Origin: an uncultured Ignavibacteria bacterium
GTDB lineage: Bacteria; Bacteroidota; Ignavibacteria; Ignavibacteriales; Ignavibacteriaceae
NCBI GenBank assembly: GCA_963727535.1
Contig: CAVSGR010000005.1
Location: 11,251 to 75,250 of the forward strand
DNA: 64,000 bases
Direction: 5' to 3'
Shown here: positions 4,621 through 53,260 of the stretch, in pieces
How the letters are laid out: every line of letters starts with the position of its first letter
How positions within the stretch are numbered: position 1 is the stretch's first letter
Notes under the pieces: generated by a model
The model's input: the letters and a program-made list of their open reading frames with translations, nothing else
What the model was told of the DNA's origin: nothing
The model's database searches: none
Position numbers and translations under genes: made by a program

Positions 4621-4707
4621 CGGAGAGACAGGGATTCGAACCCCGGAAGGACTTGCATCCTTAACGGTTTTCAAGACCGCCGCATTCAACCACTCTGCCA
4701 TCTCTCC
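4621..4707 (-). tRNA. tRNA-Ser (anticodon UGA), class II with long variable arm
   Basis: Folded by hand: acceptor GGAGAGA/TCTCTCC, D-stem GCA/TGC, anticodon stem GCGGT/ACCGT with loop CTTGAAA, variable arm AGGA..TCCT, T-arm CGGGG-TTCGAAT-CCCTG, discriminator G. CCA is not encoded. Confidence 0.9.
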
Positions 4708-6020: not shown

Positions 6021-6479
6021 TTAAATCCTTACTAACAGAAAAACTAAAGCAGTAATAATTGAGAAAACCAGAGCGGGAAGTTTTGGGTTCCTTGAATTAA
6101 AAATTACTATCATTGCTATTATCCAAATGACAAACAAAATAATCGATTGTAAATCGAAAAGTTCGGTAATTGGCGGAACTTCTTTGTTTAAGGCGTTAAG
6201 CTCATAGGTTTTTCTAAGAGGAGTTATAGCTATTGAATAAAAAAAGAAAAACGTAACAGCGGGCAAAGTAAGCTTCTTTATTTTCTGATTTTCATTAAAA
6301 TATTCAAGCCCGATTCTAAAGCTTAAAAATAAAGCAGTAAATAAAACCAGAGAACTTAAAGTATTTACTCTTGAAGGTAATGATAAAACAGCAGAGTTTT
6401 CTCCAGTGCTTCTTTGAATGTAAAAAACAATAAGAGTAATGATTATGGCTGTTGTCCAGAGAATAAAAGAGCGCTTCAT
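6021..6479 (-). CDS. Hypothetical integral membrane protein (4-5 TM)
   Basis: Hydrophobic-segment pattern only; no recognisable family. Confidence 0.45.
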   Translation of the reverse strand: MKRSFILWTTAIIITLIVFYIQRSTGENSAVLSLPSRVNTLSSLVLFTALFLSFRIGLEYFNENQKIKKLTLPAVTFFFFYSIAITPLRKTYELNALNKEVPPITELFDLQSIILFVIWIIAMIVIFNSRNPKLPALVFSIITALVFLLVRI

Positions 6480-26577: not shown

Positions 26578-27876
26578 TCAATAAATAAAATTTTTAATCT
26601 CTAGCGATGAAGGATTTCCAATCAATACATACTGCAGGTTTTTAATATATTCTTTAGTGACTTTTTGAATATCTTCCGGGGAAACCTTTTTAACAAAATT
26701 TAAATATTTATCTGCATTTGCATATCCGGAACCTGAAAGCTCATATCTTGCAAGCAAACCGGCTTGCTGAGCAAATGTTTCATTTCTCATATAATATCCT
26801 GTTGCAAAAGTATTAACCTTATTTGCAAGCTCCTGTGCAGATATAGGGTCTTCCTTTATTTTATTAAGCTCATTCAACATAATGTTTATTGTTGAGTCTG
26901 GATATACGGTGGTAACATAAATTGCGCCGCTGTTTGAAAAGCTGCCATTTGTCCACGCTGAGGGGGCATAAGATAATGATCTTTTTGTCCTAACTTCTTC
27001 AAATAATCTATCTCGTAAGATCGAAGTTGCAACAGCCATTGAATAATAATCATCCGATGCAAAAGATGGTGCGGGAAAAACGCCTTCCATATAAACTGTC
27101 GGCAACTCTCTATCTACCAGCTTTAAAGTTGTTTCACTATGCTCAACCGGTGGTAATTGAGGTTGCGTAAAATTTCCTGTCGGAATATTTCCAAAAGATT
27201 CTTTAACTATATTTTCGATTTCTGCTTTTGAAATATTTCCCACAACTACTAATAACATTCCTGATGTTTGCAGACGGTTTTTATAATATTCTTTAATCTG
27301 TTTCTGCGAAAAGGAATTGAGTGTTGCTTCATTTCCGTAAACTTCAACTCTGTAGGGATGATTATTATAAAAAGCATCAGCTACTAAATGATTTAAGTAA
27401 CTATCTGGATTATCCTGCCCCTGTTTTACGGCATTAATTTGTTGTTCTTTTTCAAGCTGAAAATCTTCATTTGTAAAAGATGGATTGGCTATAACATCTG
27501 AAAATATTTTCCATGAGTCACCAAAATATTGTTTTACACAAAGAAGATTTATACTTGAATAATCTAATCCGGATGAAGCAGAAAGTTGAGAATTCATACT
27601 TTCCAATTTTGAACTCAAGATGTCTCTTGAATAACTTTTAGAAGCATCGGTTGCTATTTGAAGAGTTAAAGCTTCTAATCCGGCTCTTTCAGGGTCAAGA
27701 AGAGCAACTCCTCCCTTGAAATACATTTGTGCAGCAATAATATCTGTTGATGTATTTTGTTTGAATATTACTTTTAACCCATTAACAGTGAATGATTCTG
27801 TTTGTTGGGCAAAACCCGATTGTATTGTTAAAATTATAATACAAGAAAAGAGAATTTTATTAATTTTCTGTAACAT
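26578..27876 (-). CDS. M16-family peptidase, non-catalytic-type subunit (no HxxEH)
   Basis: Signal peptide plus pitrilysin-like two-domain layout. Paired with the upstream catalytic subunit. Confidence 0.8.
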   Translation of the reverse strand: MLQKINKILFSCIIILTIQSGFAQQTESFTVNGLKVIFKQNTSTDIIAAQMYFKGGVALLDPERAGLEALTLQIATDASKSYSRDILSSKLESMNSQLSASSGLDYSSINLLCVKQYFGDSWKIFSDVIANPSFTNEDFQLEKEQQINAVKQGQDNPDSYLNHLVADAFYNNHPYRVEVYGNEATLNSFSQKQIKEYYKNRLQTSGMLLVVVGNISKAEIENIVKESFGNIPTGNFTQPQLPPVEHSETTLKLVDRELPTVYMEGVFPAPSFASDDYYSMAVATSILRDRLFEEVRTKRSLSYAPSAWTNGSFSNSGAIYVTTVYPDSTINIMLNELNKIKEDPISAQELANKVNTFATGYYMRNETFAQQAGLLARYELSGSGYANADKYLNFVKKVSPEDIQKVTKEYIKNLQYVLIGNPSSLEIKNFIY

Positions 27877-29242
27877 TTTTCAACTCTCCTTTTGGAATTT
27901 TAATTGCAAGCTCTACTTTTTCTTTTTCTTCCGGCGAAGTTAAAACGCCCATTACATAAGATTTGTCTATAACATATTTTTTCAGATAATCCTGTATGTC
28001 TTTTCGTGTAACCTTTTTAAGATTATCTACATAGTTTAAGTAATAATCCAAACCAGCAACACCCCACCAGAATCCAACAGTATGCACGAATTGGCTTGGC
28101 TGCTGTCTTCCATATTGCTCATTTATTGCAAGAATAGTTTTTGCGTTTTCAAGTTGTTCGTCAGAAAAGTAGTCATCCTTTAACATATTATTTAATTCAT
28201 TAAAAAAAGCCTTCTGGAAATCATCAAATTTATCTCCTGAAGTTTGAGCAAATAAGGAAATTGGTCCTGTGTGATTTAATGTATAATAACCGAAGCTTGC
28301 AGAGAAGGCTAAGCCACTTTCAACAAGATCTTTTTGAAATTTAGAAGTTTTTTGACCAAGTATATATGATAACACATCTGCTGCATAAGTAGCTTTTGTA
28401 TCTTCTTTAACAGATGGTCCCTGCCACTCATAATACACAGTTGTAGACTTTACTGGCTTTACAACTATTACAGCTTCAGTTTTTTGAATTGGCGGATGTT
28501 GAGGGATAGGGAATTCTTTAAAGGGATCCGGACCTTTTTCCCAACCAGCAAAATATTTTTTTGCGAGATTGAAGCCTTCTTCAGGAGTAATATCTCCAGC
28601 TAAAATAAGCGCTGCGTTGTTAGGAATATAATATCTATGTTGAATGGTGTGCATTTTTTCTGGTGTTGTAGTTAGAATAATATTCCTGTCGCCAATAACA
28701 TTTTTTCTACTGTAATATTTCCACCACACTTTTTTATTTACGGCAGTACTTAACTGAAAAAACGGGTTTGCTTCATTTCTATCATATTCTCCTGTTACAA
28801 CAGGTCTTTCTTTAACTAATTCTTCTTCTTTAAATAAAGGAGAAGTAATTGCATCATACATAAACTGCATTCCAGGTTCAATACTATCCTTTTGAAGAGT
28901 AATAAAATAATTTACTCTTTCTTCACTTGTTGAACCGTTCCAAACCGCTCCAAGCTCACGTAGTCTTTCCATATATTTTTCCTGGCTTGGAATCTCTTTA
29001 TTTGCTTTAAAGAACATATGTTCATACAAATGCGAAAGTCCGTCATATTCCGGTGCTTCTGTATACGCTCCGTTCTTTACATCGAACTCTATTGTTACGA
29101 GGGGTACTACCGGGTTGTGGATTACAATAACATCCATTCCGTTATCCAAAGTTTCCTTTGTAATCCCATACTTTTGTCCAAACAATAAAGAAGTAAAGAC
29201 AAAGCAGAACAGGATTAAAAAAAGCCTGCTTCCTTTAAGCAT
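27860..29242 (-). CDS. M16-family zinc peptidase (insulinase-like), catalytic subunit
   Basis: HLYEH (HxxEH) zinc motif and a downstream E-rich region. Confidence 0.85.
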   Translation of the reverse strand: MLKGSRLFLILFCFVFTSLLFGQKYGITKETLDNGMDVIVIHNPVVPLVTIEFDVKNGAYTEAPEYDGLSHLYEHMFFKANKEIPSQEKYMERLRELGAVWNGSTSEERVNYFITLQKDSIEPGMQFMYDAITSPLFKEEELVKERPVVTGEYDRNEANPFFQLSTAVNKKVWWKYYSRKNVIGDRNIILTTTPEKMHTIQHRYYIPNNAALILAGDITPEEGFNLAKKYFAGWEKGPDPFKEFPIPQHPPIQKTEAVIVVKPVKSTTVYYEWQGPSVKEDTKATYAADVLSYILGQKTSKFQKDLVESGLAFSASFGYYTLNHTGPISLFAQTSGDKFDDFQKAFFNELNNMLKDDYFSDEQLENAKTILAINEQYGRQQPSQFVHTVGFWWGVAGLDYYLNYVDNLKKVTRKDIQDYLKKYVIDKSYVMGVLTSPEEKEKVELAIKIPKGELKNVTEN

Positions 29243-50690: not shown

Positions 50691-50760
50691 GATTCTTGTA
50701 TTCTGAAATCAACAGCCTACTTATGTTATATGGCAAGGCGTCGAAGTTATGTAAGAGTTT

Positions 50761-50790
50761 TTCTCCCGATCATTAATTTGGTTGGGAGAA
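50761..50790 (+). terminator. Weak hairpin downstream of the phosphatase gene
   Basis: TTCTCCC-N16-GGGAGAA, a 7-bp stem with a large loop. Confidence 0.3.
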
Positions 50791-51747
50791 AATTTCTAAT
50801 ATATGATTATAATTCTCCAAGCCTATTTATTTATTATTCTATACAAGTCTTAATTAAATCCTATGGATTTTAAATGTAATTCTAATATTAATAGTACTGT
50901 TTCAATCTATAGGTAATATGTTTTATTGATATTCTTTCTGCAATTGCTGCTAATTAATCTTGCTATTCTTAACATGTGATTTTCGTGATCTGAATAGATT
51001 CTGCATTCAATTATCTTGCAAATTTTCATCGTATATTATATTTCTTCTCTTAGTGCTTGAATTTGTAGTTCATTAAAAATCTTATTTATGAATTGTCATC
51101 ATCAGATGTTGTCTCTATCTTCTGTTCCTTTTGCACTCAAACTAAATATATTTCCATAATGAGTTATACTTTTTTTTCATAACTTTTTTTGATGTGCTCA
51201 ATTAATTTTTCTTTTTCAGAATCAATTTTCCAAACATCAATTGATTCATAGGTATGTTTTATTATATAATACTTGTATCAAAAGGAAATTTTTTTGTTGA
51301 TCAATTGCATTTAACTAAACAATATTCGCTTAGATTTGCAATCGATTTTCTTCATACCTAATTTCAAAAAATACATTTGCGATTAAGTGTAACATATTAC
51401 TATAGTACTTAATATCATCTTTTTTCAACATTCTTATAATTTTATCCTTGATATAACTGTCTGCCCCATCTTATAAATTGTTTATTTGGCTTCAAAAATT
51501 CCACTCTTCTTGTAATGGCTCAGAATACAAGAGATATTCCATTACAATCTGCATAATTAGTGATTCCTATCATTCCCATAAATAGGAAGATATTATCTGA
51601 TACTGTACTCTACATTATTATAAAGCAGTGGTTTATCATCCATAATAAATCATTCATATTTAGTTCTAATATACTTAATCAATTTAACCACGAAAATACT
51701 TCAGCTGGACATCACAAAAATAACTCTAAATTTTTTTTAATTACCTC

Positions 51748-51787
51748 TTGACAGGTGTACATCTGTTCACTATATTTGTGGTGAACA
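51748..51787 (+). promoter_or_regulatory. lexA promoter (TTGACA-N17-TATATT, with TATATTTG fitting TAnnTTTG) bracketed by the palindrome TGTTCAC-N10-GTGAACA
   Basis: TTGACA at 51748-51753, TATATT at 51771-51776, inverted-repeat arms at 51764-51770 and 51781-51787, and the ATG at 51789. Confidence 0.5.
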
Positions 51788-51788
51788 A

Positions 51789-52454
51789 ATGAGCACTACT
51801 ATGAATGACAAAAAAAATCAATTGACAGATAGACAGGAGGAAATCCTTAAATTTATTAACTCTTACCGGGAAGTTAATGGGTTTCCTCCTACGATAAGAG
51901 AAATTGCACGGCAGTTCGGGATGTCTTCTACTTTTGGGGTGAAAAAGCATTTAGATGCTTTAGTTAAGAAGGGGTACCTGCATATTGAAAGCAATGCAAG
52001 CAGGGGAATTTCAACTCTGCAAAGCAGTGAACCGGAAAGTTCGACCATCTTTGAAAGCAACGATATTTTCAATAGAATCCCTGTGATCGGGCGGGTAGCA
52101 GCAGGTACTCCAATCTTAGCCGAAGAAAATATTGAAGGTTCACTCGTGATAGATCCTGCGCTTGCAAGTAAAAGCGGAAACGCTTTTGCGCTTAAAGTAA
52201 AAGGCGACAGTATGATTAATGCCGGAATATTTGACGGAGACTTTGTAATTGTCGAACCGCAAAAAGAAGCTAAGACGGGAGACATTGTTGTTGCACTTAT
52301 CGATGATGAAGCGACTGTTAAAACTTTTGAGAGGAAAAACGACAAGGTAAGATTATTACCTCAAAATGATAACTATAACCCTATTGATGTGACCAACAAA
52401 GAGAACTTTTCTCTTGTTGGCAGAGTCAAAGGTATTGTAAGGTATTTTAATTAA
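51789..52454 (+). CDS. lexA: LexA repressor (winged-helix + S24 autopeptidase)
   Basis: LTDRQEEILKFI...GFPPTIREIA, cleavage-site region VAAG, and catalytic KVKGDSM ... VKTF. Confidence 0.92.
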   Translation: MSTTMNDKKNQLTDRQEEILKFINSYREVNGFPPTIREIARQFGMSSTFGVKKHLDALVKKGYLHIESNASRGISTLQSSEPESSTIFESNDIFNRIPVIGRVAAGTPILAEENIEGSLVIDPALASKSGNAFALKVKGDSMINAGIFDGDFVIVEPQKEAKTGDIVVALIDDEATVKTFERKNDKVRLLPQNDNYNPIDVTNKENFSLVGRVKGIVRYFN

Positions 52455-52463
52455 GGAGTTATT

Positions 52464-52712
52464 ATGAAAACGGACATTTTTTCAAATGCCATTATGAGAA
52501 GAAATAAAATCAGGTTTCTTTATGGCTTATCCGAAGTTGTGCTCGAACCTTATTACATAGCTACTGAAAAAACGGGAAGAAAAGTTATATACGGCAGACC
52601 GTTTAATTCCAGCGAAGTAAGAAAGTTCGAATTTAGCAGGATAGCCAATATACGTGTGCTGAGGGGTGCGAGGTTTTCGCCGCTTATTCAGATCAGCGGT
52701 TATGTAAATTAA
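52464..52712 (+). CDS. 82-aa hypothetical protein co-operonic with lexA (small beta-rich, WYL/Sm-like pattern by eye)
   Basis: AAGGAG Shine-Dalgarno 5 nt upstream; 9-nt gap after lexA. The pattern IRFLY....V.EPYYI.....G.KVIYG.........RKFEFSRI..IRVL is present. Confidence 0.6.
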   Translation: MKTDIFSNAIMRRNKIRFLYGLSEVVLEPYYIATEKTGRKVIYGRPFNSSEVRKFEFSRIANIRVLRGARFSPLIQISGYVN

Positions 52713-52725
52713 AGCGAGGTATGAA

Positions 52726-53166
52726 ATGTTAGATTTAATAAAAAGAAAAAACGTTGATTTGTTAGTCGACCAATTATGGAGATATGGTTACTTAACTTTA
52801 AAAAGAAAATATGGTACTTACTTATCTGCACCGGAAAAGGTCGGCGGATTTGATATAGACATTATATCACGACAGAAAAAAGATTATGCAATCGGTGTTT
52901 CATTATCTGTTGAAGAAATAAATAATCCTAAGCTGCTTGAGAAGATTTCTTTCCTGGCAACGAGGCATACAAAATTTACAAACAACAATGTTACACTTTT
53001 CCTCGGGGTGCCTTCGGGTCATCTAAAAAAAGTAAAAGAACTTGTTGAAGTTCTCGGCGATGATATTAAAAAGAATATTAAATTTGTTTCTATTCCGGAA
53101 ACCGGAGTTCCTTCTCCCACAGAGAAAAGAAGAAAGAAGGACACAAGCAAGTCTCTGTTCGCATAA
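52726..53166 (+). CDS. 146-aa hypothetical protein, last gene of the lexA operon (alpha-beta-beta-beta-alpha-beta pattern, basic tail)
   Basis: GAGG Shine-Dalgarno; 13-nt gap. GGFDIDIISRQKKDYAIGVSLS resembles the beta2-beta3 hairpin of PD-(D/E)xK folds but lacks ExK. The C-terminus PTEKRRKKDTSK is basic. Confidence 0.55.
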   Translation: MLDLIKRKNVDLLVDQLWRYGYLTLKRKYGTYLSAPEKVGGFDIDIISRQKKDYAIGVSLSVEEINNPKLLEKISFLATRHTKFTNNNVTLFLGVPSGHLKKVKELVEVLGDDIKKNIKFVSIPETGVPSPTEKRRKKDTSKSLFA

Positions 53167-53231
53167 ATTCCCTCAAATATTTTTACCTTTACACTACTAT
53201 AGTACATTTATAATTTTCGCAATCGAAAAAA

Positions 53232-53260
53232 GAGAAAAGCCTTTTAACAAGGCTTTTCTT
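53232..53260 (+). terminator. Hairpin terminating the lexA operon
   Basis: GAAAAGCC-N9-GGCTTTTC followed by TT. TTGACA follows immediately. Confidence 0.55.

Follow-up and report, generated by a model that had tools for sequence, protein, structure and literature searches.

Bacterial DNA-damage responses are usually described either as LexA/RecA (SOS) responses or as responses based on WYL regulators such as PafBC and DriD. Extended lexA operons are known, including lexA-imuA-imuB-dnaE2, lexA-dinF and lexA with SRAP, DinB or ImuB-C genes (PMC3765255). In Firmicutes, the WYL/Sm-like superfamily includes the small stand-alone proteins YolD/YqjX, whose genes lie in LexA-controlled operons; these proteins pair with Y-family polymerases (UvrX, YqjW) and have been proposed as UmuD counterparts (PMC4012209, PMC6511836). 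More than 90% of WYL proteins carry a helix-turn-helix (HTH) domain (PMC6789036), and in DriD, PafBC and CapW the WYL domain binds single-stranded DNA (ssDNA) as a damage signal (PMC9186387, PMC11804915). Here we describe a lexA operon in a 64,000-nucleotide stretch of DNA from an uncultured Ignavibacteria bacterium (GenBank assembly GCA_963727535.1, contig CAVSGR010000005.1), which we call the window. In this operon lexA is followed by orf82, a small WYL-superfamily gene, and by orf146, the gene of an orphan protein, and the two kinds of damage response are physically joined. A literature search on WYL/LexA operons, LexA in Ignavibacteria, Bacteroidetes LexA motifs and stand-alone WYL proteins in combination with SOS found no description of this operon.

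The called lexA open reading frame (ORF; 51789-52454), orf82 (52464-52712, 82 amino acids) and orf146 (52726-53166, 146 amino acids) all lie on the plus strand, separated by 9 and 13 nt. The lexA stop codon shares nucleotides with the sequence AAGGAG (52453-52458), which is 5 nt ahead of the orf82 ATG. GAGG (52715-52718) lies 7 nt ahead of the orf146 ATG. The tight three-gene unit proposed in the initial annotation, with these gaps and a Shine-Dalgarno (SD) sequence for each downstream gene, was reproduced, and its control by LexA is predicted here as well. In the window, the trio is followed by uppS and then bamA.

To survey this arrangement, we used an alignment of orf82 relatives to scan the GTDB species, each represented by one genome. 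Relatives were found in 255 genomes. The best 80 loci, all from Ignavibacteria and spanning Ignavibacterium to Melioribacter, were examined. In 79 of them lexA, orf82 and orf146 occur in identical order and on the same strand; the sole exception, L057, is ended by a contig edge. The gap between lexA and orf82 has a median of 13 nt (range 9-45) and that between orf82 and orf146 a median of 15 nt (range 3-40). Both downstream genes have an SD-like core in front of them in 76 of 81 loci. From orf146 to uppS the median distance is about 190 nt and reaches 2 kb. In one locus, L089, lexA and the WYL gene have 13 nt in common.

A broader synteny (ilvE, alkaline phosphatase, the lexA trio, uppS and bamA, also ompH) is kept in many genomes. 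Because of this, cases of broken synteny were needed, and L081 and the divergent loci were inspected. L081 has an intact trio with both flanks replaced (a NAD synthase gene upstream and a PAS histidine kinase gene downstream); the orf146 relative there shows no more than about 30% identity. The trio is also kept in five further divergent loci, L082, L083, L085, L086 and L087. A reverse scan, in which metagenomes were searched with a LexA alignment, gave 80 LexA loci at 38-59% identity. Among the Ignavibacteria-type LexA loci with enough downstream DNA, the WYL gene stands behind lexA in 22 of 22 and orf146 in 20 of 20. In about 55 more distant LexA loci of the same scan, neither gene was found behind lexA. 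From locus to locus, the sequence identities of the three proteins rise and fall together (r 0.73-0.81), and the median identity of orf82 equals that of LexA (61% each). The arrangement is far beyond chance. A neighborhood survey had been named beforehand as a possible refutation of the coupling; in its results, homologues accompany lexA and the same operators with essentially no exception. These data suggest that the trio forms one self-repressed lexA operon throughout the class Ignavibacteria.

Other features of individual loci were recorded. A WYL-orf146 fusion of 237 amino acids (P0185) was at first read as Rosetta-stone evidence. It was rejected as a gene-calling artefact: a TGA stop (L089 434-436) had been translated as Trp, and with translation table 11 the two ORFs are separate and 6 nt apart. 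In L076 (6264-8520), the orf146 homologue looks truncated (ORF 6264-6455) and uppS lies about 2 kb away, which suggests an insertion disrupting the homologue. In L086 (287-2751), Mu Gam-like, HTH_39 and HTH_3 genes lie directly upstream of lexA; they resemble the remains of a prophage or transposable phage bordering the operon.

The LexA protein matches TIGR00498 (E 1.5e-65, 220.6 bits against a cut-off of 110.95). Its domains are a winged HTH DNA-binding domain (PF01726, 3.9e-22) and an S24 peptidase domain (PF00717, 2.4e-38). In an alignment of 14 orthologues, GRVAAG with the VAAG cleavage site, the serine of GDSM and the lysine of TVK are invariant or nearly so. By these motifs LexA is canonical, with a predicted Ala-Gly self-cleavage site and Ser/Lys dyad.

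The best promoter match of the region is a sigma-70-type promoter on the plus strand (51748-51776). It consists of TTGACA (51748-51753), a 17-nt spacer and TATATT (51771-51776), an 11/12 match. Two 16-bp candidate operators overlap it, each with a GAAC-N4-GTTC-like core (GTGAACAnnTGTTCAC). Box 1 (51755-51770, GTGTACATCTGTTCAC) occupies the spacer between the -35 and -10 hexamers. Box 2 (51781-51796, GTGAACAAATGAGCAC) lies just past the -10 hexamer, over the expected transcription start and the 5′ untranslated region (UTR). We derived a consensus from the upstream regions aligned across 76 loci. Box 1 has one mismatch to GTGAACANNTGTTCAC and stands at the same position in all 76; its class consensus is an 18-bp palindrome, AGTGnACAnnTGnnCACT, that fills the spacer. 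The imperfect right half of box 2 (GAGCAC) is itself conserved in the class. The whole upstream consensus, CTTGACAAGTGnACATTTGTnCACTATATTTGTAGTGAACAAATGAGCACT, which runs from the -35 hexamer through palindromic box 1 and the -10 hexamer to a second copy (box 2) downstream, is kept in the 76 loci and in the divergent loci. Both promoter hexamers are nearly invariant in the 76 aligned loci and in L081-L087. When the operator position matrix was run over 905 kb, comprising the loci and the window, it matched lexA promoters only. The palindrome at the promoter had been noticed before and described as a single bracket around it. The symmetry is real, but the single bracket is not, as TGTTCAC...GTGAACA represents the inner halves of two operators.

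The position of box 2 also bears on the lexA start. The ATG at 51789 sits within box 2 and is not kept as a start codon: some relatives have AAG or AGG in its place. The start codon that is conserved comes right after box 2 (ATG, 51801 in the window; MNDKKNQL...). On these grounds lexA probably starts at 51801, which leaves a very short 5′ UTR without an SD sequence. One further box in the window, at 29010-29025 (AAGAACATATGTTCAT), has a perfect GAAC-N4-GTTC core. It was rejected as an operator because it is part of the coding sequence for an M16-type peptidase (27860-29242, minus strand) and its mismatch count is within chance; the core is probably a chance match.

The initial annotation had described the orf82 product as a tiny beta-rich protein, and structure prediction agrees with this. 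The AlphaFold2 (AF2) model (predicted local distance difference test, pLDDT, 84.5) has one N-terminal helix and five strands, which fill the whole protein. When the model was compared with the PDB by Foldseek, the top 23 matches were WYL domains of BrxR, PafBC, DriD and CapW, all with probability 1.00 and template-modelling (TM) scores, as TMq, of 0.65-0.70. At the sequence level, 7 of 29 relatives match the Pfam WYL model at E <= 0.01 (best 3.4e-6), and orf82 matches the generic PADLOC WYL model at 9.7e-5. The Pfam scan gave no HTH match in orf82, and a barrel of 82 amino acids leaves no WCX domain. Searches of the orf82 profile and of family member P0074 against PDB sequences returned nothing. 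The Pfam models of YolD, Rof and Hfq did not match orf82 at E <= 1, and that of YolD matched none of the 29 members. By its predicted structure, orf82 is a stand-alone WYL/Sm-like beta-barrel without HTH or WCX, a kind of fold used as a nucleic-acid sensor. The family conserves an RxF..RI-like motif and the basic residues R13, K40, R45 and R52/K53. PDB entry 9c5g, which is among the Foldseek matches, is cited for ssDNA binding by WYL domains. By analogy, ssDNA binding by orf82 is a reasonable inference.

The orf146 product is an orphan. No model of Pfam, NCBIfam, PADLOC or PHROGs matches it or any of 27 relatives. When its profile was run exhaustively against 1.84 billion (1.84e9) representative proteins, only 54 were recovered, which marks the family as a narrow one. 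Against PDB sequences, orf146 itself, its family profile and a merged profile yielded noise only. Scans of IMG/VR, one started from the orf146 alignment and one from P0210, a divergent homologue, found no real relatives. The AF2 model (pLDDT 69) is globular over residues ~1-125, with an alpha-beta-beta-beta-alpha-beta core that fits the restriction-endonuclease fold. Weak Foldseek matches (E 4e-3 to 0.2, TM 0.33-0.45) were obtained to CdiA-CT, NucS, Cdn1 and XisH in the PDB and to MmcB-like, 'DNA repair', Vsr and restriction-endonuclease proteins in BFVD. All of these share the restriction-endonuclease (PD-(D/E)xK) fold. Residues 126-146 form a basic, disordered tail (pLDDT <50) ending in ...KSLFA. 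A nuclease-like fold with a basic tail had been suspected in the initial annotation. The similarity to the fold recurred here in weak form, and the tail is indeed basic and disordered.

Three borderline profile matches of orf146, P0229, P0234 and P0235, are linked to the orf146 family by hhalign at 97.8%. They belong to a small unannotated family of 126-150 amino acids that has the PD...ExK motif in its textbook form and matches nothing in Pfam. These proteins align motif-for-motif with archaeal Hjc resolvases, below threshold (E 0.14-0.55), and may be a catalytically intact sister group of orf146. In orf146, Asp45 aligns with the Asp of 'PD', and the ExK position is V58-S-L60. The PD Asp is replaced by Ala in the divergent members P0190 and P0192. 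As judged from these alignments, orf146 is probably a degenerate, non-catalytic Hjc-like domain. The tail has a median net charge of +3, and [E/Q]-K-[V/I]-L-F-S-COOH is terminal in 72 of 78 species loci; divergent members have an internal [SD]LF and a terminal [FY]xN. The end of the tail looks like a short linear motif. Its resemblance to the beta-clamp-binding motif QL[SD]LF, from whose consensus it departs at position 2, is speculation on our part, and a C-terminal protease tag would fit equally.

Gene order, spacing, operators, class-wide linkage and the fold of orf82 are the established part of our account. We propose that orf82 and orf146 are induced in the SOS response as a pair of accessory proteins that bind nucleic acids and act on damaged DNA, and we put the probability of this reading at roughly 0.55. 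LexA bound to the two boxes, one in the spacer and one at the transcription start, would silence its own gene together with the pair packed behind it. Upon DNA damage, RecA-stimulated self-cleavage of LexA would de-repress all three genes, which are predicted to be co-transcribed, together. orf82 would bind ssDNA. orf146, having presumably lost catalysis, would be a DNA-structure-binding or adaptor subunit and not a nuclease, and its tail might dock onto a partner as a beta-clamp-like peptide or act as a degradation tag.

Several points weigh against this reading. Binding of LexA to the boxes is deduced from position, symmetry and conservation, and co-transcription and damage induction of the trio are predictions. 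The operon end is moderately supported, because terminator-like hairpins 3′ of orf146 are enriched (33 of 78 loci) and not universal. With the broad synteny conserved, part of the linkage reflects vertical inheritance. The Pfam WYL match of orf82 itself (PF13280, E 1.3e-3, 19.1 bits) is under the 21.8-bit cut-off, and the TM-scores of Hfq, Lsm and YaeO/Rof to orf82 nearly equal those of WYL domains. The ssDNA pocket of DriD is formed partly by its linker and dimer domain (Tyr240, Arg288; PMC9186387). Since these parts are absent in orf82, its binding of ssDNA is not assured. For orf146, the fold assignment is weak (pLDDT 69, best E 4e-3, TM 0.38-0.45), and the most conserved segment, residues 20-45, is a low-confidence region of the model. 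One invariant lysine, Lys51, might in principle take the place of the lost one in an unconventional active site. Lastly, the divergent homologue P0210 (131 amino acids; L084 4001-4396) occurs with no lexA and no WYL gene. It is surrounded by a long run of small co-directional genes on an 83-kb contig, and a Pfam and PHROG scan of the ORFs around it gave no matches. This block may be a mobile element or phage; 'phage-like' remains an impression.

The alternative that survives best, which we regard as possible but doubtful, is that the two small proteins modulate the SOS response by feedback. For instance, orf82 would sense ssDNA, and it and orf146 would promote or restrain LexA cleavage or the activity of the RecA filament, in the manner of DinI, RecX or anti-repressors, or the two proteins would form with LexA a 'split' HTH plus WYL regulator. 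The position of both genes fits this idea, as they always stand directly behind lexA at translational-coupling distances, down to the overlap in L089, and are found only in the clade with the Ignavibacteria LexA type. Characterised WYL domains control a DNA-binding regulator, and LexA is the only HTH protein of the operon. The conservation of orf82, as strong as that of LexA, points the same way. However, LexA has every feature for ordinary RecA-dependent self-cleavage, and the WYL-orf146 fusion, a possible hint of a complex, proved to be an artefact.

A bolder version is offered as a tentative idea with rather little confidence. The bare WYL barrel and its degenerate-nuclease partner would be an ssDNA sensor wired into the LexA switch. 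The pair would bind the ssDNA or forks that arise from damage and act on LexA, RecA or the replisome clamp, so that the RecA/LexA and WYL paradigms, so far regarded as alternatives, are merged in one operon-encoded machine. Such a sensor operon may be a 'split', ancestor-like form of the HTH-WYL regulators.

It is unlikely that the operon is an SOS-triggered defence, abortive-infection or toxin-antitoxin-like module with a WYL sensor and a nuclease effector, as the initial annotation had suggested. The idea draws on the fact that WYL domains regulate CBASS, BREX and CRISPR systems, and orf82 matches CapW, BrxR and the PADLOC WYL model. The fold similarities of orf146 include the CdiA-CT toxin and Cdn1, and the homologue in L084 lies within a small co-directional ORFan block resembling a mobile element. 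However, defence genes are patchy and island-borne, whereas this distribution is universal, single-copy at a single locus and vertical within one class (255 species genomes), with the trio embedded among housekeeping genes (uppS, bamA). The ExK motif is lost and the PD Asp varies in divergent members. PADLOC and PHROG have nothing for orf146, and neither has IMG/VR. Because of the universal single-locus distribution, the protein co-variation, the housekeeping neighbors and the degenerate motif, we favor a core damage-response function over a defence island or toxin-antitoxin system.

One of the two proteins might instead be an SOS checkpoint effector of cell division or replication, like SulA, YneA, SidA or DidA, which halts the cell until repair is done. 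Such inhibitors are typically small, lineage-specific and under SOS or WYL control, and often stand beside lexA, as yneA does in Bacillus. The didA gene is under DriD control (PMC9186387). The operon shows no other candidate for this role, and a clamp-binding-like or degron-like C-terminal tail would suit a transient inhibitor. Against this, neither protein has a transmembrane segment or any likeness to known inhibitors, and WYL and restriction-endonuclease-like folds suggest nucleic-acid binding and not divisome targets. We consider a checkpoint effector improbable.

Still less probable is a role of orf82 as an RNA-binding Sm/Hfq-like protein or a Rof/YaeO-like Rho inhibitor, by which the operon would couple SOS to RNA metabolism or termination. 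Foldseek also gives YaeO (6jie, TMq 0.65, TMt 0.69), Lsm proteins and Caulobacter Hfq (6gwk, TMq 0.65, TMt 0.75). The layout of orf82, an N-terminal helix and five strands, is that of Sm proteins, and 82 amino acids is the size of Rof. But the first 23 Foldseek ranks are WYL domains with better E-values, and the sequence profiles that match are WYL, with no Pfam Rof or Hfq match at E <= 1. Finally, adjacency through inherited synteny alone, without functional coupling, would account for the wider neighborhood (ilvE, alkaline phosphatase, lexA, uppS, bamA, ompH) that many genomes also keep, but is very hard to reconcile with gaps of 9-45 and 3-40 nt inside the trio where the distance to uppS has a median of about 190 nt (to 2 kb), with no promoter-sized gap between the genes, with the survival of the trio between replaced flanks (L081) and behind varied upstream genes, and with the confinement of both genes to genomes with this LexA clade.

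At the 3′ end of the operon, a terminator-like hairpin with a 12-bp stem and a 5-nt loop (53232-53260, plus strand) lies between orf146 and uppS. Coding-region controls had similar hairpins at 13 of 76 loci, compared with the 33 of 78 found 3′ of orf146. The hairpin scores as a terminator on both strands, and its T-run is better on the minus strand. Transcriptional read-through into uppS may occur. The called TTG start of uppS (53259) overlaps the hairpin, so the true start is probably further downstream.

Upstream of the promoter lies an AT-rich non-coding stretch of 1.06 kb (50691-51747) with 26% GC against 35% for the window and with GC and AT skew reversed. Its position beside the operon had been pointed out as an anomaly, and it does adjoin the operon. 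It has no counterpart in relatives save for the promoter-proximal 60-150 nt; about 150 nt at the alkaline phosphatase end are also shared (in L003). In a six-frame translation of the stretch every frame is broken and no gene remnant was recognised. An Rfam search of the whole window found nothing in the stretch or the operon; its only match at gathering level is one tRNA (4621-4707, minus strand). The stretch may be what remains of an insertion or of a minus-strand gene that has decayed. It is lineage-specific and appears unrelated to the operon, except for the promoter-bearing last 60-150 nt.

If the pair binds ssDNA or contacts LexA, RecA or the clamp, the operon would show how a WYL barrel works without HTH and WCX, give a function to a family of unknown proteins, and provide a first SOS outline (operator motif and core operon) for Ignavibacteria. 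This is a poorly studied lineage of the FCB (Fibrobacteres-Chlorobi-Bacteroidetes) group, with two cultured species that allow testing. Should the two proteins be simple repair accessories, they would nevertheless extend the list of SOS genes cleanly and for a whole class.

The operators can be compared with other LexA sites. GAAC-N4-GTTC is the consensus of the Cheo box, the Gram-positive type of LexA site. Both boxes resemble it in their cores and in overlapping the promoter, as for other lexA genes; they differ in that conserved flanks extend the site to AGTG...CACT. LexA motifs reported for Bacteroidetes are GGA-N5-TCC and CTAA-N5-TTAG (PMC8565304), and the operators described here are unlike them. 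orf146 can be compared with Hjc and other small PD-(D/E)xK proteins (NucS C-domain, XisH, MmcB, Vsr). Its predicted elements follow in the order seen there: a helix, the G-x-strand, the D-I-I-A strand and a third strand. It differs in the change of ExK to V..L, in an Asp that varies among divergent members and in the extra basic tail with its terminal LFS.

Self-regulated lexA operons with lineage-specific cargo and small WYL-superfamily proteins in SOS operons are already known. What is new is the cargo of a bare WYL barrel and an orphan protein with a probably degenerate nuclease fold, the coupling to lexA fixed throughout the class, and the operator pair. Like the extended lexA operons, this one would be an auto-regulated lexA co-transcribed with lineage-specific damage-response genes. 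Compared with theirs, its cargo has no polymerase, RecA paralogue, SRAP or ImuB-C; no polymerase gene was found in the operon in more than 100 loci, and the expectation that the two downstream proteins differ from the usual lexA partners was borne out. The closest precedent is YolD/YqjX, as a small WYL-superfamily protein in an SOS operon, but the partner of orf82 is an orphan with a putative restriction-endonuclease-like fold and not a polymerase. PafBC, DriD, CapW and BrxR share with orf82 the WYL barrel fold and a setting in the DNA-damage response. These are HTH-WYL-WCX transcription factors of 280-640 amino acids that act independently of LexA or in parallel to it, whereas orf82 is the WYL barrel alone; its gene is part of the lexA operon, and LexA presumably represses it.

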